A DNA stretch of 64,000 nt from Ignavibacteria bacterium. GTDB lineage: Bacteria; Bacteroidota; Ignavibacteria; Kapaibacteriales; UBA2268. The DNA lies in the NCBI GenBank assembly GCA_016844745.1, contig JAERMQ010000005.1:47964-111963 (forward strand). The letters are read 5' to 3'. The position numbers and the translations under genes were made by a program. Below the pieces are notes generated by a model. The model was not told the DNA's origin and did not search any database. It was given only the letters and a program-made list of their open reading frames with translations. Of the stretch, positions 13,227-50,633 are shown one piece after another (position 1 is the stretch's first letter; the number at the start of each line of letters is the position of its first letter).

Positions 13227-13267
13227 ATTACGAATTACGAATTACGAATTACGAATTACGAATTACG
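13226..13267. repeat. Heptanucleotide tandem repeat (AATTACG)x6
   Basis: Six perfect units counted, starting on the last base of the sufB stop codon. Confidence 0.95.
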
Positions 13268-13316
13268 AAAAATAAACATTTTGACAATAAAAGAGACGAA
13301 ATGGAATTTCGTGTTA

Positions 13317-13343
13317 CATTGACCATTAACCATTGACCATTAA
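13317..13343. repeat. Heptanucleotide tandem repeat (CATTGAC/CATTAAC), short array
   Basis: Sequence is cattgaccattaaccattgaccattaa. This is the same unit as the long array at 25214..25311. Confidence 0.9.
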
Positions 13344-25135: not shown

Positions 25136-25208
25136 TCTAATAATTCATAATTCATATTAATTTATTCGTAATTTATAATTTATAATTCATAATTCATAAT
25201 TCACAATT
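25136..25208. repeat. Degenerate heptad satellite (ATAATTC-type)
   Basis: taattcataattcatatt...tataattcataattcataattcacaatt. Confidence 0.8.
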
Positions 25209-25213
25209 ATTTT

Positions 25214-25311
25214 CATTGACCATTGACCATTGACCATTGACCATTGACCATTAACCATTGACCATTGACCATTGACCATTAACCATTAACCATTGACCAT
25301 TGACCATTAAT
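25214..25311. repeat. Heptanucleotide tandem repeat (CATTGAC/CATTAAC), about 14 units
   Basis: Counted units 25214-25311. The array overlaps the recO stop codon (25307-25309). Confidence 0.95.
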
Positions 25312-32900: not shown

Positions 32901-32985
32901 GGAGGATTCGCATAATGGTATTGCAGCGGTCTTGAAAACCGCCGGGCGTCAGCCTGTGGGGGTTCGAGTCCCTCATCCTCCGCCA
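32901..32985 (+). tRNA. tRNA-Ser (anticodon TGA), type II with long variable arm, encoded CCA
   Basis: Acceptor ggaggat/atcctcc. Anticodon stem gcggt/accgc with loop ctTGAaa. Long variable arm, T loop ttcgagt, 3' gCCA. Confidence 0.88.
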
Positions 32986-33031
32986 ATACTAATCATAAGC
33001 CCTTGCAAGATAAAAACTTACAAGGGCTAAA
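32958..33031 (+). repeat. Left direct repeat (attL): tRNA-Ser 3' part plus its terminator hairpin
   Basis: Core 32971..33007 is identical to 50573..50609, and 33009..33031 is identical to 50611..50633. There are three mismatches in the T-arm part. Confidence 0.9.
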
Positions 33032-36017: not shown

Positions 36018-37520
36018 TCAATTATTTAGCACCTCAATTATCTCTTTAAAGCTATTCAAAGCTGTTTCAATATTTTCAACAATTTCTAATGCTATTGCAT
36101 CCGGTTCCGGTAAATTGTCAAGGTCTCCTAAGCTCTCGTCTTTAAGCCAGAAAATGTCAAGGTTAGTCTTGTCCCGTGCTATCAGTTCTTCATAAGTGAA
36201 ACATTTGAATTGCTCGGTTTCTTTTCGTTTGAATCTGTTTTCCGGATTGTAGCATTTTACGAAGTCCTCAAGATGTTCATATTGCATCTGCTGGGTTTTT
36301 AAAGTGAAATGCTGATTAGTCCGTAGGTCGTAAATCCAGACTTCTTTTGTCCATGCTGATTTACTTGCCGGTTTGTTATCAAAGAAAATTACATTTGCCT
36401 TCACTCCCTGTGCATAGAAAATACCAGTCGGTAGCCTTAAAAGAGTATGCACATCACAGCTTTCAAGTAGTTTCTTACGGATTGTTTCACCTGCTCCACC
36501 TTCAAATAAAACGTTATCAGGTACAACTACAGCCGCTTTACCATCTATTTTCAGCATTGTCCTGATATGCTGAATGAAATTCAATTGCTTATTTGAAGTA
36601 GTTGCCCAGAAGTCCTGCCTGTTATATGTTAGGGATTCTTTACCTTGCGAACCGTCCTCGTGTGTTAAAGTTATACTACTCTTTTTGCCAAAAGGAGGAT
36701 TAGTCAGAACATAGTCAAATCTCTGGTTCGGGTCTGAAATTAAGCTGTCTGCCTGAACAATGACGGGTGTGCTGTCAATATCACCTATATTATGCAGGAA
36801 CAAATTCATAAGGCACAAACGAGCCGTCATCGGAACAATTTCCCATCCCTTGAATGTTTTGAATTTCAGGAAGTCCTTTTGTTCCCTGTTTAGCTGATAT
36901 TTCTTGCTTATATAATCGTAGAATGAAATAATAAAACCACCGGTACCGGCTGCAGGGTCGCACATTGTTTTCGATGGTTCCGGATGAATGCACTCAACCA
37001 TAGCCTTGATTAACGGTCTCAATGTAAAATACTGCCCGGCTCCGCTTTTGGTATCCTCTGCATTCTTTTGCAGTAACCCTTCGTATATTTCACCTTTAAC
37101 GTCGTAGTCAATGCTAATCCAGGTTTCTTCATTTATTAGTTGAACTAACTTAAAGAGCTTTGCCGGGTCTTGGATTCGGTTCTGAGCTTTATTGAATATC
37201 GTGCCTAACATTCCTTTTTCCAAACCGAGGTTCTTGAGAAGATTGATATAATGCAATTCAAGTTCAGCGCCTGTCTTACTTACAAGAGATTCCCAGTTGA
37301 ATTCTTTTGGAATATTTATTTTCCGGTTATATGGCGGTTTCGAGTATTCATCTGCCATTTTCAGGAAAAGTAAAAATGTTAGTTGCTCGAGGTAGTCGCC
37401 ATAACTGACACCGTCATCCCTCAAAATATTACAGTAATTCCAAACCTTGGCAACTATATTTGACGATGACTTTTTTAATGCTGAATGCTGAATTCTGAAT
37501 TCTGAATTATTTTTTTGCAT
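36018..37520 (-). CDS. hsdM: Type I restriction-modification system methyltransferase subunit HsdM
   Basis: HsdM_N-like start (KVWNYCNILRDDGVSYGDYLEQLTFLLFLK), AdoMet motif DPAAGTGGF and catalytic NPPFGKK. Confidence 0.93.
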   Translation of the reverse strand: MQKNNSEFRIQHSALKKSSSNIVAKVWNYCNILRDDGVSYGDYLEQLTFLLFLKMADEYSKPPYNRKINIPKEFNWESLVSKTGAELELHYINLLKNLGLEKGMLGTIFNKAQNRIQDPAKLFKLVQLINEETWISIDYDVKGEIYEGLLQKNAEDTKSGAGQYFTLRPLIKAMVECIHPEPSKTMCDPAAGTGGFIISFYDYISKKYQLNREQKDFLKFKTFKGWEIVPMTARLCLMNLFLHNIGDIDSTPVIVQADSLISDPNQRFDYVLTNPPFGKKSSITLTHEDGSQGKESLTYNRQDFWATTSNKQLNFIQHIRTMLKIDGKAAVVVPDNVLFEGGAGETIRKKLLESCDVHTLLRLPTGIFYAQGVKANVIFFDNKPASKSAWTKEVWIYDLRTNQHFTLKTQQMQYEHLEDFVKCYNPENRFKRKETEQFKCFTYEELIARDKTNLDIFWLKDESLGDLDNLPEPDAIALEIVENIETALNSFKEIIEVLNN

Positions 37521-37663
37521 TGCTTCTTTCTTTAGAAGTTAATATTATACTATTATATTTGACGATGCTTTTTTAATGCTGAATTCTGAATGCTGAATTC
37601 TGAATGCTGAATTCTGAATTATTTTTTTGCATTGCTTCTTTCTTTAGAAGTTAATATTATACT
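37455..37663. repeat. Tandem ~100/110-nt duplication spanning the hsdM start and the four-helix-bundle gene 3' end
   Basis: Copy 1 (37455..37553) has 4 heptamer units. Copy 2 (37554..~37663) has 6 units and a 1-nt deletion. Both contain attatttttttgcattgcttctttctttagaagttaatattatact. Confidence 0.9.
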
Positions 37664-37987
37664 GTTGATTATTTTTAGGATTTCCGAAGAGTCTTTTGAT
37701 ATGGAATCAAAAGATTTCTTATCAATATAGTTGGTATCTTTTAATAAATTTAACCAATACTCAGTTTCTCTTGTTTCTTTTGCAGAAATTCCTAATTTGT
37801 GAACAAAATCCATTTTTGATTCTGCAGATTGAGCTTCATTAATATTTGCTCCAATTGATGTGCCGCTTCTTAAAATTTGCTTTGAAATGACATATTCTTT
37901 CTTTTCATCAATCAAAAATTTATATAGTTTGATTATTCTAATAGCAAATTTATATGATTTTCCAACGATGATATTTTCTTTTCCCAT
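37619..37987 (-). CDS. Four-helix-bundle protein (23S rRNA intervening-sequence protein family, TIGR02436-like)
   Basis: Motifs YKFAIRIIKLYKFL, QILRSGTSIGANINEAQ, SKMDFVHKLGISAKETRETEYWL. Confidence 0.85.
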   Translation of the reverse strand: MGKENIIVGKSYKFAIRIIKLYKFLIDEKKEYVISKQILRSGTSIGANINEAQSAESKMDFVHKLGISAKETRETEYWLNLLKDTNYIDKKSFDSISKDSSEILKIINSIILTSKERSNAKK

Positions 37988-38000
37988 TTTATTATCCCTT

Positions 38001-38131
38001 CTTCTTTAATGCTGAACTTCTTTAATGCTGAATTCTGAATGCTGAACTTCTTTAATGCTGAATTCTGAATGCTGAATTCTGAATGAAAAGACAATTCAGC
38101 ATTCAGCATTCAGCATTCAGCATTCATAATT
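38001..38131. repeat. Heptamer array with orientation switch (imperfect long hairpin)
   Basis: Three cttctttaatgctgaa... units, then gctgaattctgaatgctgaattctgaatg, a 7-nt loop aaaagac, then aattcagcattcagcattcagcattcagcattc. Confidence 0.9.
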
Positions 38132-38702
38132 ATTTCCCTTTTTCAAATTCATTCTTCAATCGGAAATAGTAATCTTCCATAAAATCCGAAAATCCCCAAC
38201 CAATATTACGTGAACGCTCATAAAGTATTTTCAATCTTTCGCTGAACATATTATATAAATGAGGATATTTATTCAATGTAGAGCAAAAATCATCGAATGC
38301 AACATCAATCGAATTATAAAAATTAGAAGAAATATCACCGAAATCCTTTGTAAAAGCATTGCAGGTTTCAACATAATAGAGTTTTAAGTCTGCTATATGT
38401 TGGGGATAATCCTTGAGTATTTTAGCATTATCCGAAATTACTTTTTTGGCTTCTCTTAGTTTTAAATGATTATTAGAATAAACAGAAGTACCATAAATAA
38501 AACGATAAATTTTCTTTTTAGCATCTGTTATCATTGCATCAAAATTAATTCCATCAGAACCTTTCAAAAATACATCCAGAAATTCTTTATTCTTAGGATT
38601 AATTTTTGTCATTTCAATAATAACTTCAATAAGCTCCTCTTTCTCTAATTCCAGAAGCTCATACTTCAATGTCTTTTTCGGTATCTTCTTTATTTCTTTC
38701 AT
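38130..38702 (-). CDS. Hypothetical helical protein (cassette between hsdS and hsdM)
   Basis: Intact 190-aa ORF with arrays in the same orientation on both sides. No catalytic motif recognised. Confidence 0.6.
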   Translation of the reverse strand: MKEIKKIPKKTLKYELLELEKEELIEVIIEMTKINPKNKEFLDVFLKGSDGINFDAMITDAKKKIYRFIYGTSVYSNNHLKLREAKKVISDNAKILKDYPQHIADLKLYYVETCNAFTKDFGDISSNFYNSIDVAFDDFCSTLNKYPHLYNMFSERLKILYERSRNIGWGFSDFMEDYYFRLKNEFEKGK

Positions 38703-38836
38703 TCTACATTCTACATTCTAAATTCAGCATTCAGCATTCTAAATTCAGCATTCATAATTCAGCATTCAGCATTCTAAATTCAGCATTCAGCATTCATAAT
38801 TCAGCATTCAGCATTCATAATTCAGCATTCAGCATT
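38701..38836. repeat. Heptamer array (ATTCAGC/ATTCTAA/ATTCATA/ATTCTAC), about 19 units
   Basis: Read directly. It spans the gap between the hsdS stop and the start of the 190-aa ORF. Confidence 0.95.
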
Positions 38837-40151
38837 TCTTAATCCTTTCAAGCAAGACCGAAGCCGGTTCATCATTCGGGTCTTGAGGAACAAGCCTACC
38901 TTCAAATGCTTTTTTCAAAATGCTCTGACGAAGGCTTTCAGCTTGAATTAAGCTCAAATCTATTGTCTTTTCTAAATTCTCTGTTTCTGAAAAACGGGCT
39001 TCTATCTCGGATACGATTTGGTTTTGTAATGCTGAATTAGGAATGCTGAATGCTGAATTTTTTAAGAAATCGGCAGGAACTCTTAATTGACCAGCTGTGC
39101 CTTTCATATTATTTCTTGCATTCTTACGAAATGTCTCTTGCAGAACAAAATAAAACATAAATTTTGGGATTACTTCGGTTTTATAAACCCTAATTACATG
39201 AAATTCCGTTGAACCACAACCAACTCCATTAATAAGATTTTCCAATAGAGCAATTTTACCATTTTCCATACAGGGAGTTATTTTAGCAAAGATAATATCA
39301 CCGTTTTGAAATTGAGTAAATCCTTTTTTAACTACCCCAAATTTACGAATGTCTGATAAATTATATTTCCCTGATTCTGCTTCAACCATTTTCATCGGTA
39401 AAAATGAAACTTCAACATTATCATCAGGATTAGAATCAAGTCTTGGATTTACTTTAGCAACGTCACAAATTCTTTTTTTCTTCCATTCAGAATTCAGCAT
39501 TCTTAATTCAGCATTCTCACAGACCAATTTCCCACTAAAAGCATAAGACAGGACAGATTGTTTATAGCGCGAAATCTGTTCTTTCGCTTTTTTCAATGCC
39601 GAAACTGCAACATCAAGCTGGCTGAAAAGTTCTTCGAGTTTGGCTACTATGCGGTGCTGTTCTGGGAGTGGAGGGAGGGGGATTGGTATAATTTTCAGAT
39701 GACCTAATGGGATAAATTTCTGTGTAGTACCTTTAATCAATTGTTCTTTTTCAAGAATAAGATTTAAATATTGAGATTGCAACCAATAACAAATATATCT
39801 ATTAAGACAAATTCTATTTTGTGGTTTAAAAAGTCCAACATTTTTGATTGCAAACTGTTTATCATAATTAACAATAACAGGATTACCAATAGTTCCAATC
39901 ATTGCAAATAAAATATCTCCACGATTTACTTTGGAACGAAGATTTATTTGAATATAGTCCGCTTGTGAAATTAATTTAATGTTATCAAAATCAATAAATC
40001 CAAATTTAAGGTTTTTAGAAGTTATCAATGGATAACCTGAAGATTGATATTTTGGAGTATCATGCGTACCATCAGTAATTTTTTCACAAATATCACCAAG
40101 TTTAGTGATAGTCCAAGAAGGTGGGAGATTATTTTTCAATTCAGAATTCAT
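38829..40151 (-). CDS. hsdS: Type I R-M specificity subunit HsdS (two TRDs)
   Basis: LPPSWTITKLGDI start of TRD1. Central conserved helix is LPPLPEQHRIVAKLEELFSQLD, and the C-terminal conserved helix is QNQIVSEIEARFSE...SILKKAFEGRLV. Confidence 0.9.
   Translation of the reverse strand: MNSELKNNLPPSWTITKLGDICEKITDGTHDTPKYQSSGYPLITSKNLKFGFIDFDNIKLISQADYIQINLRSKVNRGDILFAMIGTIGNPVIVNYDKQFAIKNVGLFKPQNRICLNRYICYWLQSQYLNLILEKEQLIKGTTQKFIPLGHLKIIPIPLPPLPEQHRIVAKLEELFSQLDVAVSALKKAKEQISRYKQSVLSYAFSGKLVCENAELRMLNSEWKKKRICDVAKVNPRLDSNPDDNVEVSFLPMKMVEAESGKYNLSDIRKFGVVKKGFTQFQNGDIIFAKITPCMENGKIALLENLINGVGCGSTEFHVIRVYKTEVIPKFMFYFVLQETFRKNARNNMKGTAGQLRVPADFLKNSAFSIPNSALQNQIVSEIEARFSETENLEKTIDLSLIQAESLRQSILKKAFEGRLVPQDPNDEPASVLLERIKKC
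39028..39059. repeat. Heptamer tract inside hsdS (GCTGAAT orientation), translated as NSAFSIPNSALQ
   Basis: aatgctgaattaggaatgctgaatgctgaatt. It sits at the TRD2 / C-terminal conserved-region boundary. Confidence 0.9.
39485..39516. repeat. Heptamer tract inside hsdS (ATTCAGC orientation), translated as ENAELRMLNSEW
   Basis: attcagaattcagcattcttaattcagcattc. It sits at the central conserved-region / TRD2 boundary and is inverted relative to 39028..39059. Confidence 0.9.
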
Positions 40152-40172
40152 AATTCAGCATTTTACATTCTA
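40135..40172. repeat. Heptamer tract covering the hsdS start codon
   Basis: attcagaattcataattcagcattttacattctaaac. The hsdS ATG (40151-40149) lies inside it. Confidence 0.85.
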
Positions 40173-40205
40173 AACTTTAAATTAATTATTTTAAAATTTT
40201 AACCC

Positions 40206-40703
40206 TTAATCTTCTTTAATAGCCACCATAACTGATAAATTTAATTCACCTTCTATAGTGAAGTCAATTTCATAATCCTGAATCAGGAAATTATATTGAT
40301 TAAACAACAGTTCTTTACGTTTTATAAGTTTATCAAGTTCAGTAATTTGCTGTGAATTATATTTAAAAAGATTAAGTGCATATTTATATTCCTTATCTCT
40401 GATATTAGCCGGCAAAATTGCAATATTCCACGCTACAACCGCAAATTCAATAACGGCTCTGATTTCATCATCATTTTTAGTAAGTTCAAGCAAAGGCTCT
40501 GCAAATTCAATAATGATTTGTGAAGCTTTTTCCTTGAAGGGTTTCTTTTTAAAACTAATTTTTCCGGTATTTTCTATTTTATCGGCTCTATCTAATAATT
40601 TTTCGCTAACACCATCCTTTTTAGCTTTTTCAAGGAAGCTCCTCTTTTTCTTGTTAAAATCTTCTTTCTTTTTCTGTCTTTTAATATTTGATTTAATGGA
40701 CAT
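40206..40703 (-). CDS. Hypothetical protein, paralogue A of 42443..42916 (Lys-rich N-terminus + conserved ~110-aa C-domain)
   Basis: Alignment by eye: SQIIIEFAEPLL...AVIEFAVVAWNIAILP...KRKELLFNQYNF versus SNIILEFALPFI...KALEFAIIVWNITTLP...NRKHELFSEYDF. The ATG at 40703 is preferred. The track ORF starts at TTG 40787. Confidence 0.6.
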   Translation of the reverse strand: MSIKSNIKRQKKKEDFNKKKRSFLEKAKKDGVSEKLLDRADKIENTGKISFKKKPFKEKASQIIIEFAEPLLELTKNDDEIRAVIEFAVVAWNIAILPANIRDKEYKYALNLFKYNSQQITELDKLIKRKELLFNQYNFLIQDYEIDFTIEGELNLSVMVAIKED

Positions 40704-40783
40704 ATAAACTAAGATATATCTTAAAAATTCCCAATTCCTAATTATTTTATTTGTTTGAATATTTACACAGTTATTCAACATTC

Positions 40784-42283
40784 TCAATTGTTAATTGTCA
40801 ATTCCTTTGCGAACGCTCTAAATTTGTCAGTTGTAACGTATTTGCCTGTTTTATCTGAGCCATGATATTCAATAAAACCAATTTTCTTTAAAAAGACTAA
40901 ATCATTTTCTACCGTTCTATCAGTTATTCCGACATTTTTGGTATTTATACCGTCTTTTACTCCGAAATTTACAGCGAACTCTTTTGCTGATTCAAACTTT
41001 GAAGAATTAATTAAATCCAGTATTTTCAATAATCTTTGTATTCGTTTGCCTTTTACTCCGAAATTTACTCCGAAATTTACTCCGAAATTTACTCCGAAAT
41101 TTACTCCGAAATTTTCACTCAAAATGTCGGTGGTTATTTCTTTGTAATTTTCATTATTCTCAGCTTTTAATTTTCTTTCAAACTTTATCGTAAAAAAAGA
41201 ACCTTTTTCAAAGATAGCGGGAGGCAAATCAGCTTCTTTCATAGCATCCTGAATTCGCTTTATTCCAGTTCCAAGCTTTTCAATATAATTTGCCCTTAGC
41301 ATCATCGAAGCAATTAAAGTATTTCTTGTAACACTCTTAGTTCCGAAATCAGATTCCTTCAATCCATGGGGTAAGCCTCCGGGGTTTGAAATCTCAACTC
41401 TGTCGTCAAATATTTCAATAATTACATTTGCTCCCTTTTCAAAATAATCGCGATGGACAACAGAATTGATAATTGCTTCACGCAAAGCTGTTTCTGGGAT
41501 TTCCAAAATATCTTCTCTCTGAAGAGTTTTAATTTTGTAGCTTATTTTCAGATGCTTTTTCAGGAATAAAATTGCTTCCTCAACATTGGATATAAGGTCG
41601 CCATTGAAATCCTTTCTGTCAAGTATATGAATTTTTTCCTTACCTTTATATAAAACTCCCGTAACTACAGATTGTATAAATATTCTATCGGGATTCTTAG
41701 CAAAGAATAGAATTCCTGCATTATTCAGTATTGTTTTTGTTTCGTCCTGGGATAAAATACCAAGATTTTCTAATACCACTTTGTAATCATATTCTGAGGA
41801 GATACCACATTTTCTTAAGAATCTATTATATTTATCCAAATCAAAATCTTCAGCAAAATTGAATCTTTTGTCATAAATCTCATCGAATCTGACTCTTCCT
41901 TCATTCTGAATAAAAGCTATTATGTCGTCTGTGCTCATCTTTTGAGAAGTAGCGCCATTTCTTAGATAGAAACCGGAAGAGCATTTATAAGGTTTTCTAT
42001 TTCCTTCAGGAACATTTATAATTACTATTTTTTCAAATTTTTCAATTGTAATTCTTATCGGGGGGTCGCAGTTTTCAGCAATGCTTTGAATCTCTGATTT
42101 AATCCTATTGTCTAATTTAAACCCTTTAATAGCTGAAGCATCAGTAATTCCAAGAAAAATTCTTCCTCTAGCAGAATTAGCAAAAGAAACTATTTCTTTA
42201 TCAATTTTCGATAAAGATTCTTTGAATTCTATGAAATATCCTTCACCTTCTTCGAGGATTATTCTCAACTCTTCTTGTCTCAT
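40784..42283 (-). CDS. AlbA_2 (Schlafen-like DNA-binding) + HATPase_c_4 + C-terminal wHTH protein (RecG-like putative transcriptional regulator family)
   Basis: N-terminus is EGEGYFIEFKESL...FANSARGRIFLGI. The HATPase_c_4-like part is REAIINSVVHRDYFEKGANVIIEIFDDRVEISNPGGLP. There is an internal (NFGV)5 repeat. Confidence 0.75.
   Translation of the reverse strand: MRQEELRIILEEGEGYFIEFKESLSKIDKEIVSFANSARGRIFLGITDASAIKGFKLDNRIKSEIQSIAENCDPPIRITIEKFEKIVIINVPEGNRKPYKCSSGFYLRNGATSQKMSTDDIIAFIQNEGRVRFDEIYDKRFNFAEDFDLDKYNRFLRKCGISSEYDYKVVLENLGILSQDETKTILNNAGILFFAKNPDRIFIQSVVTGVLYKGKEKIHILDRKDFNGDLISNVEEAILFLKKHLKISYKIKTLQREDILEIPETALREAIINSVVHRDYFEKGANVIIEIFDDRVEISNPGGLPHGLKESDFGTKSVTRNTLIASMMLRANYIEKLGTGIKRIQDAMKEADLPPAIFEKGSFFTIKFERKLKAENNENYKEITTDILSENFGVNFGVNFGVNFGVNFGVKGKRIQRLLKILDLINSSKFESAKEFAVNFGVKDGINTKNVGITDRTVENDLVFLKKIGFIEYHGSDKTGKYVTTDKFRAFAKELTINN
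41052..41111. repeat. 12-nt tandem repeat x5 (tttactccgaaa), in frame, encoding (NFGV)5
   Basis: Five perfect units counted. A sixth diverged copy at about 40950-40975 encodes AVNFGVKD. Confidence 0.95.
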
Positions 42284-42290
42284 GATATTC

Positions 42291-42376
42291 CTATGCTACA
42301 AGTTCCAAATTAATTTCTTCAATTATATTATCTAATTCATTGCCGAACAGCTTCCAGACCAACCATGCTCGGCAAA
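42291..42376 (-). pseudogene. Relic of hsdR 3' end (copy 3, with ~10-nt deletion)
   Basis: Aligns with 45108..45200 and 44810..44906: ...gccgaacagcttccagacc[..]ccatgctcggcaaa. It ends in LELVA-stop 8 nt from the AlbA_2 start codon. Confidence 0.8.
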
Positions 42377-42399
42377 TTCTACATTCTAAATTCTACATT
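42376..42399. repeat. Heptamer tract (ATTCTAC/ATTCTAA)
   Basis: attctacattctaaattctacatt. Confidence 0.85.
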
Positions 42400-42447
42400 G
42401 AAAAAGCCAAGTTTAGCAATAGTCCATGAATGAAGTAAGAAATTATT
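42400..42447 (-). other. hsdS-5'-like relic 1
   Basis: Reverse strand reads AATAATTTCTTACTTCATTCATGGACTATTGCTAAACTTGG. hsdS codons 6-20 read AAAAATAATCTCCCACCTTCTTGGACTATCACTAAACTTGG. Confidence 0.7.
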
Positions 42448-42916
42448 TATCATATTTTACAGACACTCCAAGCGATAAATACATATCGCCATTTTCATTA
42501 AAATTAGCATTAAAATCGTTTATATAAAAATCATATTCGCTAAATAATTCATGCTTTCGATTTATGAGATTTTTCATATCATTAATATCGAATATATTAT
42601 TTTGAAGTTTAGAGATTTCTTTTTGTAATGATTCGGATGGTAAAGTAGTTATATTCCATACAATTATAGCAAATTCAAGTGCCTTTAATTGTTCCATTTG
42701 ATTTGACTTTTGAGAAATAAATGGCAATGCAAATTCAAGAATGATATTAGATTGGTTTTCTTTTAATTGTTTACTTTTAAAACTACTTCTATTATTATCG
42801 TTAAACTTGTTTTCCATCGACAATAATTTCGAAATATTTCTTTCGTCTTTAACCTTTTCCAAATTGGTTTGTTTTTTTATTTTTCCATTCTGATTAATAA
42901 ATGATTTTTTTGCCAT
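42443..42916 (-). CDS. Hypothetical protein, paralogue B of 40206..40703
   Basis: See paralogue A. Intact 157-aa ORF with an ATG start. Confidence 0.6.
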   Translation of the reverse strand: MAKKSFINQNGKIKKQTNLEKVKDERNISKLLSMENKFNDNNRSSFKSKQLKENQSNIILEFALPFISQKSNQMEQLKALEFAIIVWNITTLPSESLQKEISKLQNNIFDINDMKNLINRKHELFSEYDFYINDFNANFNENGDMYLSLGVSVKYDK

Positions 42917-42949
42917 AATATTGTCAAATTATTTATTTAATATTTTTAA

Positions 42950-42979
42950 TTTTACATTCTACATTTTCAATTATCAATT
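42950..42979. repeat. Heptamer tract (degenerate)
   Basis: ttttacattctacattttcaattatcaatt. Confidence 0.7.
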
Positions 42980-43024
42980 GAAAAGCCAAATTTAACAAGA
43001 GTCAATGAGGGTGAGAAGTTATTA
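42977..43024 (-). other. hsdS-5'-like relic 2
   Basis: Reverse strand reads TAACTTCTCACCCTCATTGACTCTTGTTAAATTTGGCTTTTCAATTG. It aligns with relic 1, including the shared GGCTTTT(T)CAAT tail. Confidence 0.6.
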
Positions 43025-43432
43025 ATTTTCATCATAAATAATAATGTTTTCTGAACTTATTTCGGCAAGAATTGTTGCAACAAATTTCTTATCTTCGAAA
43101 TTGGGTTTGCCCTCCCAACCTATAATATCAATATGTCTTTCAGGAATATAGTTTTTTTCAATATCAATTTCATCAGCGGGGAAATCTGACTCATTTATCG
43201 AGCAATGTCCATGGGGAAACTTCTTATTAGGTCGTACATTATTTTTTGAAGCTATTTCTTTAACTTCAGAAATATCTATACATTGTGTTTCATAACATGA
43301 AACCTCAAGTCTTTGATTTATTTCGTTTGTATCAGGGAAAAATGCTTTCCAGTGAACACGTGAATTAGAATCTTTTAAGTTATTTTCTCTTAAAAATCTT
43401 GAATAAATTTCAGGTGTTCCGTATTTGCTCAT
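43022..43432 (-). CDS. Hypothetical protein (third gene of the three-gene cassette)
   Basis: Intact 136-aa ORF with an ATGA overlap to the upstream gene. No motif recognised. Conserved-looking His/Cys/Glu residues (HGHCSI, ERHIDIIGW). Confidence 0.6.
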   Translation of the reverse strand: MSKYGTPEIYSRFLRENNLKDSNSRVHWKAFFPDTNEINQRLEVSCYETQCIDISEVKEIASKNNVRPNKKFPHGHCSINESDFPADEIDIEKNYIPERHIDIIGWEGKPNFEDKKFVATILAEISSENIIIYDEN

Positions 43433-44010
43433 ACAAACTTATCCTTAAATAATCTTTCAATATCATTTTGGATTTTAGTTATTGAAGTTTTGTTAATATA
43501 CATTTTGGAACTGGAAGATTCCCCATGAAAAAGTGATACGAAATAAAGTTCACCATTTTTGCCAAAAGTCAGATTAGCTCTTGCTCCAATTCTGCCATAC
43601 CATTCAAAGTCAATTTCGCCATCATAATCGACATCAACTTCAGGTTTCAAAGTAGTTATATAATTAGAATCGAATAACCTAATAAAATTGGATAAATTTG
43701 AACGTGAATGATGAAAAGTTTCTTTAATTTTAGCTCTTTTTTGCTCGTAAAGTGATTTATCGGAAGTTTGAATATCAATATTCTCTTCTTCAAATTCAAT
43801 AAAGAATTCTTGAAATTTCTTATGAATTAAAGTTAACATGTCTGAAAATTCAAAAAATTCTCCATCTTTTGTACAAAAAGTACTACTTAATTCGTTAATA
43901 AGTTTTATTTCGCTATTAATAAATGAGAATGAATTTTCTCCGGAATATAGGTATTGATTAGATATTTGAAGTTGATAATCAAGGGTTTCGTTATAATTTT
44001 CAATTCCCAT
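43429..44010 (-). CDS. Hypothetical protein (second gene of the three-gene cassette)
   Basis: Intact 193-aa ORF. TAATG overlap with the upstream gene and ATGA overlap with the downstream gene. Confidence 0.6.
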   Translation of the reverse strand: MGIENYNETLDYQLQISNQYLYSGENSFSFINSEIKLINELSSTFCTKDGEFFEFSDMLTLIHKKFQEFFIEFEEENIDIQTSDKSLYEQKRAKIKETFHHSRSNLSNFIRLFDSNYITTLKPEVDVDYDGEIDFEWYGRIGARANLTFGKNGELYFVSLFHGESSSSKMYINKTSITKIQNDIERLFKDKFV

Positions 44011-44735
44011 TACAAAAGCTCCTCTAATTTATCAGATACTATTTGAAAAAAAATGTCATTCTTTATTTTTCTCATTTTATCAAGTATTTTATTAACTTTT
44101 TTAAGTTCGGTTGGATTAAAAATGCTTGTATTGAAAACATCAGTATCAACGATAATTTTTTTATTTTTTAAATCAACAATAAAATTTAAAATTGCTCCTT
44201 CAAAATCAGAATATTCAAAGATCGATTGATTATATGTTCTTTTAATTTTTCCTGAAAGTTCTTTTTTAAAAACTAAAGGAGTTCTTTCTAAATATTTTTT
44301 AAATCTGTCCGGGAAGTTTATTTCATTTATATATCTTAATCCAATTCTGGAAATATTTCCTAATTTGAAAAGATTATTAATTTCAGAATAAATCTTAAAA
44401 AATTCTTCAAGTAAAGTTTCAAAATTATTATAGGAATTGATTTTGCTTACTGATAACCTATCTTTTAAAAAATGAACAACAAAACCACGTGTTTTATCTT
44501 CCAACTTAATTCCTTGAAATGGAAACTGGCTTTCAGAAACTTCAGTAGCTTTATCCATTTGAACCCCAAAGGTAAATTTTTTCAAGTCTAAAAATTGAGA
44601 GCTACTATAATTTTCCTTTAAATGTTCTTGAAAATTCAAAAGTTCTTCTTTATTAAAATTCAGCATTGGCTGGAATTGAAATTCAATTACAGCTTCTTTT
44701 ATAGGTGGTCTATATAAATTTCTTTGCTTACTCAT
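44010..44735 (-). CDS. TIGR04255-family-like protein (sporadically distributed, function unknown)
   Basis: N-terminus YRPPIKEAVIEFQF and mid-protein ISRIGLRYINEI match my recollection of the TIGR04255 signature. Not verified by search. Confidence 0.6.
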   Translation of the reverse strand: MSKQRNLYRPPIKEAVIEFQFQPMLNFNKEELLNFQEHLKENYSSSQFLDLKKFTFGVQMDKATEVSESQFPFQGIKLEDKTRGFVVHFLKDRLSVSKINSYNNFETLLEEFFKIYSEINNLFKLGNISRIGLRYINEINFPDRFKKYLERTPLVFKKELSGKIKRTYNQSIFEYSDFEGAILNFIVDLKNKKIIVDTDVFNTSIFNPTELKKVNKILDKMRKIKNDIFFQIVSDKLEELL

Positions 44736-44809
44736 TATCTATTACTTTTTTCATAATCAAACTTACTTTTGAGATTGACGAAATTAAACAAAATTTCATT
44801 CAAAAAAAT

Positions 44810-44906
44810 TTATGCCACCAATTCCACATTCATTTCTTCAATTAAATTATCTAATTCATTACCGAACAGCTTCCAGACCTTCATTAGCCCTCCATGCTCG
44901 GCAAAT
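44810..44906 (-). pseudogene. Relic of hsdR 3' end (copy 2)
   Basis: 5 mismatches in 96 aligned nt versus 45108..45203. It would encode FAEHGGLMKVWKLFGNELDNLIEEMNVELVA-stop. Confidence 0.9.
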
Positions 44907-44953
44907 TCAATATTCTACATCCTACATTCTACATTCTTCATTCAGCATCATTA
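44905..44953. repeat. Heptamer tract (ATTCTAC/ATTCAGC)
   Basis: attcaatattctacatcctacattctacattcttcattcagcatcatt. Confidence 0.85.
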
Positions 44954-45011
44954 ATATTTTGTAAAATAAAAAAATTCTTATTGTATTCCAATAAGTTTTG
45001 TATTATATTTG

Positions 45012-45092
45012 TAAAACTCTGAAAAGCGAATGTCGGTTCCATGCCGTGTGTGATATATCAAGCATATAGCGCCTAGCTTTTTAAGAGTTTTA
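45012..45092. other. Long hairpin with comparatively GC-rich ~50-nt loop, directly downstream of hsdR
   Basis: Stems are taaaactctgaaaag / ctttttaagagtttta. The interior is cgaatgtcggttccatgccgtgtgtgatatatcaagcatatagcgcctag. Confidence 0.5.
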
Positions 45093-45107
45093 TTTTGTCA
45101 TGATTGT

Positions 45108-47861
45108 TTACGCCACCAATTCTACATTCATTTCTTCAATTAAATTATCCAAATCATTACCGAACAGCTTCCAGACCTTCATTAGCCCTCCATGCTCTGC
45201 AAAAGGGGTATTGTCGAAATCACTTTTTTCAATATTTACCGAAGAAATGATATGGTCTTTTATCATTCTCAGCCATTCAGTTTGTTCTTCGGTAAACTGC
45301 ATATTCCCTGCATTCTTCCTGAATATCCAATCCTTAAAATTCCTGTTGACAATATCATTGTAAGGATAAAGCTCAGTATCAAAGCCCAGTTCGAACCTTA
45401 GAATGGAAATAATATCAGTCAAAGTTCTTTTTATACTTTTTCCCTTAACAATCGCTCCATTAAGATGCTCATAAGCAAACCAGAGCTTATCTATAGTCAA
45501 GAGCAGTGGTGGTCGTTGAATTGCTTCATACAATTCTTTAATCATTTTGAATGTAAGTTCTCTTCTTCTATACGGCTGGTCATAAAAGATTCTTAGAGCT
45601 ATCATTTCATCTTTATTCTCAGCTATAAACTTTTTGAATGATTCAATTGTCTGTTGAGCTTTATCTTTTGCTTGCTCATCGTATCCGGCAAATATAAGTT
45701 TATCGATGTTCTGATTGTCAATTATCTGTTCATGGGTTTGTCTGCATGTTTCGAAATAATCTCTAAGCTCCGGTTTATTGAACGGCATGCAAGCTGTTTT
45801 TATCAAATCCCTCTTAGCAATTTCTATCTGTTCATGGTTTGATTCCTTGTTTTCAGTTATTTTGAAGAGTTCTTTAGCTTTTTCAAATTGTTTATCCGGG
45901 TCATAAGAATTGAGCAAGTCATGAATTATTTGGTTCATTTTTTTACCATCAGCTAATTCATTGATTTTACTTCTTTCTTCATCAGTTATTTGCCTGTCTA
46001 TGCGTGTAAGACGATTAGCAAGCGATGTAATAGTATCCTCATCATGCTGCCCGAGTGCAACTCCTATAAGCAATTCTTTCAAAGGAACAGATTTCTTTCT
46101 TTCGAGCGGTCTTGAATCAGTCTTGATAGATTTACAAACTCCAACTGCATCTACAATAACAAAATGCGTTTTATTGGTTGTAGCCGATGGTGTAACTGTT
46201 TTCAATGAATCCATATCCAGAGTCCTGGTTCCGCGTCCCTTCATTTGTTCAAAGTAGTTCTTGCTTTTCACATCCCTCATGAATAGTAAACATTCAATAG
46301 GTTTTACATCAGTCCCGGTAGCTATCATGTCCACTGTAACAGCAATACGGGGATAGTACGAATTACGAAATGATTGAAGTATGGAACTTGGATTTTCTGC
46401 ATTGTAAGTTATCTTTTTGCAGAATTTATTTTCTTCGCCAAACTCTTCTAAAACGATACTGATAATATCATCAGCATGGCTATCGGTTTTAGCAAATATC
46501 AAAGTTTTCGGGACTTCTTTTCTGTTCGGGAAAATTTCAGTTTGCAGAGATTCTTTGAATGTTCTGATAACTTTTCTAATTTGGCTTTTATTAACAATGT
46601 CCCTATCTAATTGAGTTGGTTTGTATTCAATATCCTCATCAAGCTGTGTCCAGCGTTTCTTCCGGTCCAACTTACTCCTGGTTTCTACATAATCTTTCAG
46701 GATTTTACCACCTTTAGTTGTTATTTCCGTTTCGATTGTATAAACATCATAACCTACATTCACACCGTCTGCTACTGCTGATTCATGTGAATATTCACTA
46801 ACGATGTTTTCATTGAAAAAGGCATAAGTCCTTGCATCAGGAGTAGCTGTTAAACCAATTAAAAAGCTGTCAAAATAATCCAGTACCTGCTTCCAGAGAT
46901 TGTATATTGAACGGTGACATTCATCAACTATAATAAAATCAAAGAATTCAATTGGTATTATTTGGTTATAATATACCTCTTTTGGCTTTTCATCTTTCAA
47001 GTGCAATTCATTTAATGAGGTTTGCTCTGCACTTTCGTCGAGTTCTTCATTTGAAAGTATTGAATACATTCTTTGAATTGTAGAAATACAAACCTGGCTG
47101 TTCTTATCAATGAAATTGGAATTTAATCTTTGTACATTATAAAGCTCAGTAAATTTTCTATTATCGTCCGGAGGAGTAAAAGCCTGAAACTCCTGTTGAG
47201 CCTGCTCACCAAGATTCCTTGTGTCAACCAAGAAAAGGATTCTTTTGGCTCCGGCAAACTTCAATAAACGATAGATTGACGTTATAGCTGTAAAAGTTTT
47301 CCCGCTACCTGTAGCCATTTGAATAAGCGCTTTGGGTTTAGCATCTGAAAAAGATTTATCAAGTTTATTAATAGCATTAAACTGGCAATCACGTAAGTTA
47401 TTTAATTCAAGAGTAGGAATATGCTGTAATCTATATCTTAAAGAATTGGCATTTTTTAACCATTCTTTCAAAGTTTCCGGTTTATGAAATGAAAAGATTT
47501 CTCTTGAACGTGGCTTTGGGTCTCTGTAATCAGCAAAGTGGATTTCAATTCCGGTAGATTCGTAAACAAAAGGAAGTGGTTCACTATTAATAAACCATTT
47601 GATTTTATCAGTAGCATATCTGAAAGACTGGTCATGGACTGTTGTAAGTATTGTTCCCTCTGGTTTGGCTTCAATTACTCCAATTGGCTTTCCTTCGATA
47701 AATAGCATGTAATCTGCTTCTCCGGAATCAGTCGGAAATTCCCGAACTGCAATACCAGGACCTACAGATAAATTAACCTGCTTATAATCTTGAATAATCC
47801 AACAACATTGAGTTAGTTGGATATCAATATTCTGTCTCGCTTCTTGTTCCGGATTTTGCAC
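45108..47861 (-). CDS. hsdR: Type I restriction endonuclease subunit HsdR (SF2 helicase, EcoEI_R_C-like C-terminus)
   Basis: HSDR_N-like nuclease start (ADYMLFIEGKPIGVIEAK), Walker A MATGSGKT, DEAD-box VDECHRS and motif VI QMKGRGTR. Confidence 0.93.
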   Translation of the reverse strand: MQNPEQEARQNIDIQLTQCCWIIQDYKQVNLSVGPGIAVREFPTDSGEADYMLFIEGKPIGVIEAKPEGTILTTVHDQSFRYATDKIKWFINSEPLPFVYESTGIEIHFADYRDPKPRSREIFSFHKPETLKEWLKNANSLRYRLQHIPTLELNNLRDCQFNAINKLDKSFSDAKPKALIQMATGSGKTFTAITSIYRLLKFAGAKRILFLVDTRNLGEQAQQEFQAFTPPDDNRKFTELYNVQRLNSNFIDKNSQVCISTIQRMYSILSNEELDESAEQTSLNELHLKDEKPKEVYYNQIIPIEFFDFIIVDECHRSIYNLWKQVLDYFDSFLIGLTATPDARTYAFFNENIVSEYSHESAVADGVNVGYDVYTIETEITTKGGKILKDYVETRSKLDRKKRWTQLDEDIEYKPTQLDRDIVNKSQIRKVIRTFKESLQTEIFPNRKEVPKTLIFAKTDSHADDIISIVLEEFGEENKFCKKITYNAENPSSILQSFRNSYYPRIAVTVDMIATGTDVKPIECLLFMRDVKSKNYFEQMKGRGTRTLDMDSLKTVTPSATTNKTHFVIVDAVGVCKSIKTDSRPLERKKSVPLKELLIGVALGQHDEDTITSLANRLTRIDRQITDEERSKINELADGKKMNQIIHDLLNSYDPDKQFEKAKELFKITENKESNHEQIEIAKRDLIKTACMPFNKPELRDYFETCRQTHEQIIDNQNIDKLIFAGYDEQAKDKAQQTIESFKKFIAENKDEMIALRIFYDQPYRRRELTFKMIKELYEAIQRPPLLLTIDKLWFAYEHLNGAIVKGKSIKRTLTDIISILRFELGFDTELYPYNDIVNRNFKDWIFRKNAGNMQFTEEQTEWLRMIKDHIISSVNIEKSDFDNTPFAEHGGLMKVWKLFGNDLDNLIEEMNVELVA

Positions 47862-48916: not shown

Positions 48917-49168
48917 TTAAACCTTTGCCAATTTCAGTTCCGGCTCTTTTCGCCAAACCTTATTCATTTCAACAAATTTGATATTGCTCGTAATTTTTAT
49001 ATACTTCTTGAATGTTTTATAATCGGAATGCCCGGTGATTTCCATTACAGTTTCCGGACGTAATCCTCGTTCAAGAGATAAAGTAACAAAGGTCCTGCGG
49101 GCAGTTTGAGTAGTGATAAGTTCTATCATGCTTTCATTGCCAATTTTAACTCCGGCTCCATACGCCAA
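48917..49168 (-). pseudogene. Relic of a second tyrosine integrase (C-terminal ~68 codons only)
   Basis: ELITTQTARRTFVTLSLERGLRPETVMEITGHSDYKTFKKYIKI... parallels the C-terminus of the adjacent integrase (HTARRTFVTLSLEKGMRPETVMAITGHKDYKTFDKYVKI). Confidence 0.8.
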
Positions 49169-50361
49169 GTCCTATTCATCTCAACTTTCTTTACCTTGCT
49201 CGAAATTTTTACATATTTGTCGAATGTCTTATAATCCTTATGCCCAGTAATCGCCATAACCGTTTCAGGACGCATACCTTTCTCTAAAGATAATGTAACG
49301 AAAGTTCGTCTGGCTGTGTGGGTGCTGATTAGTTCATACTTGAAAAAAATCTCTTCAATTTTTTCAGCGCCACGGTACTTTGTAATTTTTCTTTTATCAT
49401 TGATTCTTGCAATTTGGCATAAGTTTTTAAGATGTTCATTCGTTTTCTGGTTCGAAATAACCGGTAAAGGCTCATCATTACTCAAATACTTATTTATAAT
49501 TGCTTCGGAAAAGGCATTTAGTGGAATTTCAAGAGGGTCTTTAGTTTTAGCTGTTCGTAAATACCACTGCCCATCTCTTATATCATCTCTTTTTAATTTA
49601 GAAATATCTGAAAACCTTTGACCAGTGAAGCATCCAAAACAAAATACATCCCTAACCCTCTCCAATGCTTTATTCGCGGATAAATCAAGATTATAAAGCC
49701 TCATCAGCTCAAATTCAGTCAAATAAATTATTTCTGTTTTTACTTCCTTTGATTTGAATTTCTTATAATCGAGGTTGGCATTGGCTTTCCGCTCAGTTGC
49801 CTAATTCATAAAAATTCTTAATAATCCTATCAGCTTATGGACAGTATTATTAGTATGCTGCTTATCGTCCAGCAGATAATTTTTAAATTGGTCAAAAAAC
49901 ATCATATCCATATTATTGAATGACAAGTGATAATTCCTCGATTTATTGAAATTCTCTATATGAGTTTTAAGTTGTTTGAACTTTTGTATGCTTGCTTTAC
50001 TCAAATCAGTTTGCCTGACCTTTAGAAACAGGTCATATACTTCAAAGAAACTCAATATTTTTTTTTCTTCCACTTTTTTAAAATGGGAATAAATAATTTT
50101 TTTAAATTCCTCAATGCTGGCAAAAGGGTTATCGTTTAATAAATTTCTGTGAATCTTTAGAATTTCATTTTTTATTGTAGTAAGCCGCTCTTCCAACTCA
50201 ATACAACCGGCATAAGTGGATTGAGCTTTCTGAAGTTTTACGTTCCATTTTGAAGGGTCGAGTTTTTCTCCAGTATTAAGAACAATTGTAGTATCGGTTT
50301 TAGCAGCGCATCTTATGTAAGCATAAATAGTTTTTTCTTTTTGCTTACTTTTTTTTATCAA
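49126..50361 (-). pseudogene. Tyrosine recombinase/integrase (Bacteroidetes type) interrupted by one in-frame TAG
   Basis: Track ORFs 49801..50361 (N-terminal arm/SAM-like part) and 49126..49722 (catalytic part with R...HxxR...Y) are in the same frame. They are joined by 26 sense codons, and the only stop is at 49801-49803 (...LLRIFMN*ATERKANANL...). Confidence 0.85.
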
Positions 50362-50561: not shown

Positions 50562-50633
50562 GGGTTCAAGAGCCTCATCCTCCGCCAATACTAATCATAA
50601 GCCCTTGCAGGATAAAAACTTACAAGGGCTAAA
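50562..50633 (+). repeat. Right direct repeat (attR): partial tRNA-Ser 3' end plus terminator hairpin copy
   Basis: tgggttcaagagcctcatcctccgccaatactaatcataagcccttgcaggataaaaacttacaagggctaaa. See the attL feature. Confidence 0.9.

Follow-up and report, generated by a model that had tools for sequence, protein, structure and literature searches.

Copies of hsdR and hsdS ends at the joints between cargo modules of a Type I restriction-modification operon from an Ignavibacteria bacterium

The hsd operon and its junction relics

A stretch of 64,000 nucleotides from an Ignavibacteria bacterium (GenBank assembly GCA_016844745.1, contig JAERMQ010000005.1, positions 47,964 to 111,963; hereafter the window) carries on its minus strand a Type I restriction-modification (R-M) operon in the order hsdR (47861-45108), hsdS (40151-38829) and hsdM (37520-36018). 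In this operon hsdR and hsdS lie about 5 kb apart, and extra genes occupy the gap. Here we describe short copies, or relics, of the hsdR 3' end and the hsdS 5' end at the joints between these genes, next to arrays of GAAT-type heptamers, and we weigh the ways in which they could have arisen, of which we somewhat favor a stepwise gain of modules through recombination between versions of this operon family. A first-pass annotation of the sequence had pointed to these relics, arrays and genes, each of which was found at, or a few bases from, the place that it gave. The core genes and the features between hsdR and hsdS are the following; ORF stands for open reading frame and TRF for Tandem Repeats Finder.

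45108..47861, minus strand: hsdR, Type I restriction subunit, 917 aa, with ResIII, Helicase_C, HSDR_N and EcoEI_R_C (Pfam)
44955..45107, minus strand: spacer after hsdR with two hairpins (RNA fold -25.1 kcal/mol, z = -3.56)
44906..44946, minus strand: heptamer array (GCTGAAT GAAGAAT GTAGAAT ...) directly abutting relic 1 (sequence, TRF, phase count)
44809..44905, minus strand: hsdR-3' relic 1, 95% identical over 97 nt to 45107-45203 (repeat family D4)
43022..44735, minus strand: three-gene cassette c241, c193 and c136 with overlapping stops and starts (ORFs; c241 is TIGR04255 in NCBIfam)
42986..43023, minus strand: hsdS-5' relic a, overlapping the c136 stop codon (local alignment score 16, marginal alone)
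42948..42975, minus strand: short heptamer run and linker-like AT-rich stretch (from the sequence), where the block homologous to the related locus L001 ends
42443..42916, minus strand: paralogue B, orphan family, 157 aa, 38% identical to paralogue A
42407..42448, minus strand: hsdS-5' relic b, whose ATG overlaps the end of paralogue B (local alignment score 19; repeat family D17)
42376..42396, minus strand: heptamer array GTAGAAT TTAGAAT GTAGAAT, joining relic b to relic 2 (sequence, TRF, phase count)
42291..42375, minus strand: hsdR-3' relic 2, with a 10-nt deletion by alignment, 7 nt upstream of the AlbA_2 start
40784..42283, minus strand: Schlafen AlbA_2/HATPase_c_4 protein, 499 aa (Pfam; domain-level matches in PADLOC)
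40206..40787, minus strand: paralogue A, orphan, 193 aa, directly upstream of hsdS
40138..40174, minus strand: heptamer array running into the hsdS start codon (sequence, TRF, phase count)
38829..40151, minus strand: hsdS, with two stretches of Methylase_S (Pfam), i.e., two target-recognition domains
36018..37520, minus strand: hsdM, methyltransferase subunit, with N6_Mtase (4.4e-68) and HsdM_N (Pfam)

By its domain content, hsdR-hsdS-hsdM is a Type I R-M system, in which HsdR combines a superfamily 2 (SF2) helicase motor with a nuclease N-domain (ResIII 1.5e-38 and EcoEI_R_C 4.7e-39 in Pfam), and the three genes are intact ORFs. The hsdR-hsdS gap holds six further ORFs and the hsdS-hsdM gap two, every one on the minus strand. 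The hairpin proposed for the spacer after hsdR is supported by folding (z = -3.6); the second of the two predicted hairpins, which is followed by a U-run, looks like a terminator. A scan of the locus for sigma-70 promoters and terminators gave the same counts as in shuffles.

The part of hsdR that is found again downstream is its final 97 nt (45107-45203, family D4). Both hsdR-3' relics are real: relic 1, only 298 nt from the live hsdR end, matches it with a blastn E-value of 4e-39 to 7e-39, and relic 2, whose deletion of about 10 nt is confirmed by alignment, matches it with E = 7e-13. The two relics match each other better than relic 2 matches the live end, when the adjoining heptamers of relic 1 are included (E = 2e-27, 118 nt, 80.5%). 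The insert is flanked by direct repeats of more than 30 bp (97 nt at 95%), and the 118-nt repeat at 80.5% brackets the block of the three-gene cassette and paralogue B.

The hsdS-5' relics fared less evenly against shuffled sequence. When 60 shuffled queries were aligned locally against the whole window, they scored 14.2 +/- 1.2 with a maximum of 17, so that relic b (score 19) exceeds all of them, while relic a (score 16) is marginal when taken alone. The position of relic a, straight after the c136 stop, is however that of a clear hsdS-start relic in L001, i.e., the two are syntenic.

The copies also carry information on one another. At all five states that separate relic 1 from the live hsdR end, relic 2 agrees with relic 1, and both have the same left boundary, where the heptamers give way to TGCCGAGCATGG. 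The hsdR-end copies inside the window are 81-95% identical, whereas relic 2 is only 74% identical to the live hsdR end of L001, which stands at the matching position before AlbA_2. Judged from the sequences, this pattern indicates gene conversion between the junction copies or their repeated re-creation, and hence copies that are recombinationally connected. The nearer relic 1 is 95% and the farther relic 2 is 81% identical to the live hsdR end, and the relic nearer to hsdR is thus the younger one, as a model in which the last module to arrive is stacked nearest to hsdR predicts.

The window has 12 arrays in which GAAT recurs in 7-nt phase at least three times, where shuffles lead one to expect 0.04, and 10 of the 12 fall within 37.4-45.0 kb, the hsd locus. 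As the first-pass annotation had noted, they mark the junctions: a GAAT-type array is present in every non-overlapping spacer of the operon, and at every join (TRF). The arrays continue between hsdS and hsdM, where the following features are located.

38701..38830, minus strand: heptamer array of 19 units with a 21-nt super-period, filling the spacer from the hsdS stop to the next start codon (TRF)
37619..38702, minus strand: cargo between hsdS and hsdM, a 190-aa protein and a four-helix-bundle (23S rRNA IVP) protein (Pfam, NCBIfam)
37472..37666, minus strand: duplicated hsdM upstream region and start, including heptamer arrays (family D6)

Inverted heptamer arrays at 38002-38126 separate the 190-aa and 23S rRNA IVP genes (TRF). 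The two hsdM-start duplicates (37472-37554 and 37584-37666) are 94% identical at an offset of 112 nt, and the 3' end of the four-helix-bundle ORF extends into the upstream copy. Codons 5-16 of hsdM are encoded by a heptamer array; therefore, a change by one unit would frameshift hsdM, and this 5' array could act as a phase-variation switch. Inside hsdS, in-frame stretches derived from heptamers (39484-39516 and 39028-39058) flank the second target-recognition domain in inverted orientation.

Cargo genes and the island that carries the operon

The three genes of the cassette (241, 193 and 136 aa) are translationally coupled, c241 belongs to the sporadically distributed TIGR04255 family, and homologues of the trio occur in L001 at 42-53% amino acid identity. 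The AlbA_2 protein is 73% identical to the product of the L001 gene. The proposed paralogy of A and B holds (38% identity, E = 8e-28); a homologue search with paralogue A recovered the query alone. No transposase or integrase was detected in the insert by Pfam, NCBIfam and PADLOC scans of all the cargo ORFs. The description of the insert as defense cargo applies in part: the AlbA_2/HATPase_c_4 gene gives a defense-family signal at the domain level in PADLOC, while the other cargo genes gave no PADLOC match and can be called defense genes by inference only. The AlbA_2/HATPase_c_4 gene contains an in-frame 12-nt tandem repeat of 5.2 perfect copies, encoding (VNFG)n, at 41052-41114, and similar 12-nt repeats are found at nearby positions in its L001 homologue (10014-10043 and 10180-10231).

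Homologues of c136 are found on nine other contigs in housekeeping surroundings, and therefore the three-gene cassette is not confined to Type I loci. Neither hsdR or hsdS relics nor heptamer arrays were found beside the c136 homologues on those nine contigs, and the relics are not intrinsic to the cassette. Homologues of the c193/c136 pair were seen in unrelated low-GC contigs (L161-L169) with no R-M genes nearby, among which a c241 homologue was detected in L168 only; the c193/c136 cassette is a sporadically distributed module.

The whole hsd operon is carried by a 17.6-kb island integrated at a tRNA-Ser gene, which ends at 32985 (ARAGORN). The boundaries and the integrase of the island are listed below.

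32971..33007, plus strand: left island boundary, tRNA-Ser 3' end (ARAGORN; blastn 37/37)
50573..50609, plus strand: right island boundary, a perfect 37-nt copy of the tRNA-Ser 3' end (blastn 37/37)
49126..50361, minus strand: tyrosine integrase split into two ORFs (186 and 198 aa) at the right island end (Phage_int_SAM_5, Phage_integrase in Pfam)

With an integrase and, at its far side, a second copy of the tRNA 3' end in direct orientation, it has the hallmarks of a tRNA-integrated genomic island, and the GC content drops to 28-31% over 40-52 kb. The split integrase, of the tRNA-island type (Phage_int_SAM_5), is the sole recombinase, about 1.3 kb upstream of the operon and beside attR. Outside the island, other heptamers fill whole spacers between co-directional genes (13226-13343 and 25140-25308; units AATTACG x6, CATTAAC/CATTGAC, ATAATTC x10 and CATTGAC x14), one of these spacers being that between a CNNM/CorC gene and recO. 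Elsewhere in the window there is also a protein with a type IX secretion system (T9SS) sorting domain, which together with the best hsdR matches suggests a host of the Ignavibacteriota/Bacteroidota type.

Related operons

Scans for HsdR in genome and metagenome collections yielded 160 loci from many bacterial phyla and some archaea. Across the phyla the order hsdR-hsdS-hsdM is kept and the inserted genes are highly variable. In 105 loci the gap between hsdR and hsdS ranges from 0 to 5 kb (median 18 nt); 58 of them have no more than 100 nt there and 44 have more than 500 nt, the gap of the window being the largest. Between hsdS and hsdM the median is 1.3 kb.

The three closest hsdR alleles, those of the window, L001 and L081, are 71-76% identical at the nucleotide and 73-78% at the amino acid level, and each has its own cargo. 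The window has the trio, paralogue B, AlbA_2 and paralogue A between hsdR and hsdS, L001 has AlbA_2, the trio and a 294-aa gene, and L081 has DUF3800, an AAA_21 ATPase and RloB. Thus the expectation that the cargo varies while the flanks are kept is borne out, both among these alleles and among the 160 loci. With R for hsdR, T for the trio, B for paralogue B, A for AlbA_2, N for the 294-aa gene and S for hsdS, the modules are ordered R-T-B-A-S in the window and R-A-T-N-S in L001, where an hsdR-end copy again precedes each module and the junctions are of the same type.

The first-pass annotation had suggested that each module carries the flanks that it would have had between hsdR and hsdS in another R-M locus, and L001 agrees with this closely. 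Relic 2 plus AlbA_2 is collinear with the live hsdR end plus AlbA_2 of L001 (73% over 1576 nt), where the AlbA_2 gene directly follows the live hsdR; relic 1, its spacer and c241 are collinear with the first relic, spacer and c241 homologue of L001 (66% over 861 nt; L001 10496-11331). In addition, the two genomes align over the last part of the trio together with the hsdS-start relic and the heptamers; the relic of L001 (12283-12327) is a clear one (45 nt, 82%, E = 7e-6). Consequently, each hsdR-end copy is natively joined to the sequence downstream of it, and each hsdS-start relic to the sequence upstream. The junctions of L001 run from the hsdS-start relic through a GAATNNN array, a linker of about 40 nt with TGTCAAT repeats and the last 35 nt of hsdR to the next gene, and its two junctions are 80% identical over 145 nt. 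It should be noted that the metagenome-assembled genome (MAG) containing L001 is titled Hyphomicrobiales, and that the contig, with 30% GC and an Ignavibacteria-like hsd locus, is probably mis-binned. Directly after the hsdR stop of the window there is a 61-nt match (77%) to the 294-aa gene of L001; this candidate remnant was not relied on, the part past the stop being A-rich and of low complexity.

Relics of the hsdR 3' end downstream of hsdR were detected in 10 of the 150 testable loci, in bacteria and also in archaeal MAGs; those named here are the window and L001 (two relics each), L022, L032, L035, L072, L093, L128 and L134. In nine loci other than the window the relics are 31-114 nt long, and except in L022 the relic reaches its own stop codon and adjoins the start of the next gene. 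In L022 (12715-13720) no gene follows hsdR, and there are tandem repeats of about 240 nt, each with a GC hairpin (GTCGTCCCTATGGGACGA), one of which starts with a 43-nt hsdR-3' relic. The intervals between hsdR and the relic contain the following genes, which are typical of embedded or selfish DNA.

L072, 12364-12940: GIY-YIG
L128, 9685-10280: GIY-YIG
L035, 12764-13447: PD-(D/E)XK "GxxExxY"
L032, 7049-7957: MNT/HEPN pair
L134, 7402-8648: downstream sequence identical to that of L032
L093: AlbA_2

Each of these small stand-alone nuclease or toxin-antitoxin units is bracketed by short repeats of its own, for example the inverted GTCATTCCCGCGAAGGCGGGAATCC in L072, and they may be small selfish elements with a preference for the hsdR junction.

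L093 offers a comparison of a filled with an empty site. Its order is hsdR, AlbA_2, a 110-114-nt repeat (98%) and hsdS. Four loci (L006, L016, L087 and L092) have hsdR ends about 90% identical to it; hsdS clearly follows hsdR directly in L087 and L092, less clearly in L006 and L016, and in L087 and L092 the repeat is single-copy at the uninterrupted site.

The relics are specific to the hsdR end. Among 77 loci that have cargo after hsdS (a gap of at least 400 nt before hsdM), none showed a convincing hsdS-3' relic, compared with hsdR-end relics in 7 of 44 loci (Fisher's exact p ~6e-4, hand-calculated). Matches to the hsdM 5' end were weak and short, in L037, L074 and L136, besides the window. 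In a blastn scan for hsdS-5' relics only L001 passed, and the window's own relics were not recovered by that scan. Therefore, the relics withstand comparison with shuffled sequence to the extent given above, the cargo is not a fixed arrangement, and other loci share the relics (10 of 150) and the arrays (L001 and L081).

In L001 and L081 the GAAT-type arrays recur also inside hsdR and hsdS. An in-frame, heptamer-based array of 21 nt x 5.6 lies in the hsdR of L081 (2552-2731), which is the closest relative by hsdR, and a 52-copy GATGTAA array after the L081 hsdS (7836-8200) reaches the contig end and probably broke the assembly. The HsdS proteins of the window, L001 and L081 have differing numbers of 7-aa (21-nt) MQNxExx units at the end of the central conserved region (L001 13901-13933; L081 7111-7142). 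In EcoR124I/II, a 12-bp repeat encoding TAEL sets the spacer length of the recognition site, and the variable 21-nt unit in these three HsdS proteins recalls it. Several other low-GC loci have arrays that are not tied to hsd. None of the junctions of the seven other relic-bearing loci contains a heptamer array, and hence the arrays are not required for relic formation. The earlier suggestion that the arrays serve as handles for recombination is thus narrowed: they are characteristic of this island lineage, travel with its operon and give dispersed short homology, and they may mediate the joins in this locus without being needed in other lineages.

How the modules may have entered, and what the relics mean

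Then, how could such relics have been produced? The explanation to which we lean, with a little better than even confidence, is an accretion in steps, each a recombination with another version of this operon family; its one-sided homology, its selection filter and the role of the heptamer arrays in it are inferred. The ancestral state would have been hsdR and hsdS abutting on the tRNA-Ser island, as they do in most relatives. Incoming DNA would span the interior of an hsdR, its cargo and sometimes its own hsdS start. Its upstream end would be anchored by homology in the conserved hsdR, and its downstream end would join illegitimately, or via short repeats, inside the 3' end of the resident hsdR. 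The product would be an intact hsdR, the new cargo, and then the displaced resident hsdR end fused to its former neighbor, and a donor hsdS start, when included, would persist as the second kind of relic. Only events that rebuild hsdR and keep the native start context of the downstream gene would survive; such a filter is suggested by the normal abutment of hsdR and hsdS together with the confinement of the relics to the hsdR end, and it would explain that confinement. The repeated junctions of hsdR end and heptamers would subsequently recombine with each other, leading to concerted evolution and to the reshuffling of modules. The heptamer arrays, which sit at the joints, may supply short homology, but they would be inessential to the process in general.

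Several observations weigh against stepwise accretion. The identical left boundaries of relics 1 and 2, and those of the two junctions of L001, are not what independent illegitimate joins would give, so that a later junction duplication or gene conversion must be invoked. No mosaic breakpoint was seen inside hsdR when the window, L001 and L081 were compared, and exact-sequence look-ups of the window's hsdR, AlbA_2 and c241 returned no match. The two copies in L093 are each other's closest relatives (98%), which an in-situ target duplication fits at least as well as a foreign donor does. The codon differences also leave the origin of the relics unsettled: in 11 relic/live pairs, 30 are synonymous and 36 non-synonymous, an excess over the 19% synonymous expected by chance (p = 6e-7) that falls to p ~0.02, by a rough estimate, if one copy was constrained and the other neutral (about one third expected), and it is only suggestive of relics that diverged while still coding.

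Some of the same evidence could be read as an active cassette system without an integrase, in which modules are excised as circles by recombination between direct repeats and re-enter at the hsdR end or at an array. The composite junction of hsdS-5' relic, array and hsdR-3' relic would then be a circle junction and the operon would have several slots. Indeed, the junction corresponds exactly to the right end of an inter-hsd segment joined to its left end, direct repeats of 118-145 nt with about 80% identity flank the three-gene module in both genomes, the modules common to the window and L001 stand in a different order in each, the junction copies evolve in concert, and the same type of heptamer inside hsdR, hsdS and hsdM of this lineage provides dispersed homology. 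We nevertheless regard it as unlikely, since the handles are short (35-97 nt with 80-95% identity, and about 40 nt for the hsdS relics), homologues of the three-gene cassette outside Type I loci have neither relics nor arrays, seven other relic loci are without heptamers and hsdS-5' relics, and no allele with an array at the -97 position of hsdR was found. Distinctly less plausible is a fusion of tandem islands or operons, e.g., after repeated integration at tRNA-Ser, by deletions that run from an hsdS start to the next hsdR end. The operon does lie on an integrative island with 37-nt tRNA-Ser repeats and an integrase, and an hsdS-5' relic directly followed by an hsdR-3' relic is the footprint that such a deletion should leave. 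However, several independent deletions with near-identical end points would be needed, because both hsdR relics begin at -97 and all the hsdS relics end after AAACTTGG. Such a fusion also does not account for relic 1, where no hsdS relic intervenes in the 298 nt up to the live hsdR end, or for the single-gene insertions with hsdR-end repeats in L072, L093 and L128, and no remnants of att sites, integrase or hsdM are found between the modules.

Two further explanations, in the first of which the relics would be by-products unrelated to the arrival of the cargo, are poorly compatible with the collinearity across genomes and with the independence of the assemblies. Local duplication by replication slippage or unequal exchange, driven by the arrays, could be argued from the array-bounded duplicate of the hsdM start with its 112-nt offset, from the short distance (298 nt) between relic 1 and its source and from the arrays adjoining both hsdR relics. 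But the contiguity of relic and cargo is kept in a second genome at 66-73% nucleotide identity, so the link between them is old and tied to the modules; each hsdS-5' relic is joined to the stop codon of a different upstream gene; and relics are present in array-free loci and specific to cargo-bearing hsdR ends. This makes such duplication a very improbable explanation. As to an assembly artefact, in which strain variants of one region were concatenated, the contig is probably metagenome-assembled and the repeats are near-identical and close together. However, assemblies made independently from other samples and phyla (L001, L022, L032, L035, L072, L093, L128 and L134) show the same architecture, the relics flank different genes rather than variants of one gene, and all the ORFs are intact; we give an artefact hardly any credence.

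Beyond the window, we entertain as a tentative and rather doubtful generalization that Type I operons of both bacteria and archaea have, in the conserved hsdR 3' end, a general docking site that works without a recombinase, where they take up accessory and defense modules from each other, stack them and change their order. In the present lineage, the heptamer arrays and the hsdS 5' end may contribute to the docking.

Accessory or defense genes in Type I operons are known, such as PrrC in EcoprrI, TgvAB in VPI-2 of Vibrio cholerae and the rlo genes of Campylobacter (PMC12707154; PMC11411939). A "guilt-by-embedding" survey has found such genes nested in Type I operons, and its discussion leaves their origin open, the significance of the embedding being said to remain "to be explored" (Payne et al., 2024, bioRxiv 10.1101/2024.01.29.577857). 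The genes described here are of the same kind, i.e., co-oriented extra genes between hsd genes with a content that varies among homologous operons, and families typical of embedded genes are found here or in relatives (AlbA_2/HATPase_c_4, RloB with AAA_21, and MNT/HEPN). Whereas the studies of embedded genes catalogue content and function, the joins here bear datable hsdR-3' and hsdS-5' footprints, and the same modules are found permuted in a relative, L001.

The locus also resembles insertion with long target duplication, whose mechanism remains unknown (Nobusato et al., 2000; Furuta, Abe and Kobayashi, 2010, PMC2853133). Common to both are an insert that lacks mobility genes, direct repeats on either side of it whose variable length runs from tens to hundreds of bp, and a single copy of the repeat in relatives with an empty site (L093 compared with L087 and L092). 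In the published cases, however, the R-M unit is the insert and an arbitrary chromosomal site is the target (PMC2853133), while here the R-M operon is the target, always at the hsdR 3' end, the events are stacked, and a second kind of relic, the hsdS 5' end, marks the far end of the insert.

Tandem accretion with copies of the 3' end of a gene is known for staphylococcal cassette chromosome (SCC) elements at orfX/rlmH and for islands at tRNA genes, both of which use dedicated site-specific recombinases and a fixed core site. The units here are likewise bounded by copies of the target 3' end, the newest beside the live gene, and the window itself holds an example at tRNA-Ser. In contrast to these elements, the relic length here varies between 31 and 114 nt, and the modules are not accompanied by a recombinase. 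With integron arrays the locus shares co-oriented, mostly promoter-less modules that stack downstream of a fixed gene in varying order, with repeated junction elements between them. The integron-like mechanism put forward in the first-pass annotation is nevertheless rejected. Neither an IntI-type integrase nor attI was found, the repeats are fragments of the flanking genes with variable length, and six single-stranded junction or spacer segments (four from the window and two from L001) show attC-like folding no better than shuffles (z = -0.95 to +1.36; -0.6 to +1.4 for the junctions). No integrase is conserved with the locus, homologues being present in 1 of 160 related loci. Therefore, "integron-like" describes the outcome and not the mechanism. 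A phase-variable hsdS shufflon or inverton was also rejected, there being a single full hsdS with extra 5' fragments of about 40 nt in direct orientation.

The arrays themselves are heptanucleotide long simple-sequence repeats, i.e., tandem 7-nt units far above chance, mostly intergenic and near starts. Such repeats are patchily distributed among Bacteroidetes, cyanobacteria and others (Mrazek et al., 2007, cited in MacGregor, 2015, PMC4679880), and are likewise tandem, mostly intergenic and often reach start codons. The present ones differ in that a single mobile R-M locus holds most of them (10 of 12 in the window), that they are found again in L001 and L081, and that they form in-frame 21-nt multiples in hsdS and hsdM, and in hsdR in relatives.

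As for novelty, which the first-pass annotation had tentatively claimed, nesting in Type I operons and long target duplication have already been described. In an incomplete literature search, neither the use of hsdR-end or hsdS-start relics to mark junctions nor a permutation of modules among related Type I operons was found to have been described; the relic footprint and the permutation appear to be new.

Many new anti-phage systems have been found nested in Type I R-M, BREX and similar operons, and the route of their arrival is unexplained. The relics are a sequence footprint of how embedded genes arrive: they mark the hsdR-hsdS junction as a preferred entry point, show whole inter-hsd segments moving between versions of the operon, and give an internal ordering, the relics nearer to hsdR being the younger. 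The duplicated hsdR 3' end is, in addition, a searchable signature, with which cargo modules could be delimited and their exchange traced in genome collections, and the origin of embedded defense genes becomes directly testable. Should the junction repeats themselves prove to be recombinationally active, Type I operons would be self-contained platforms that gather defense genes with no dedicated recombinase. If the hsdR 3' end is indeed a general docking site, the embedded genes would form a shared pool of exchangeable cassettes, with the relic junctions as its recombination sites.

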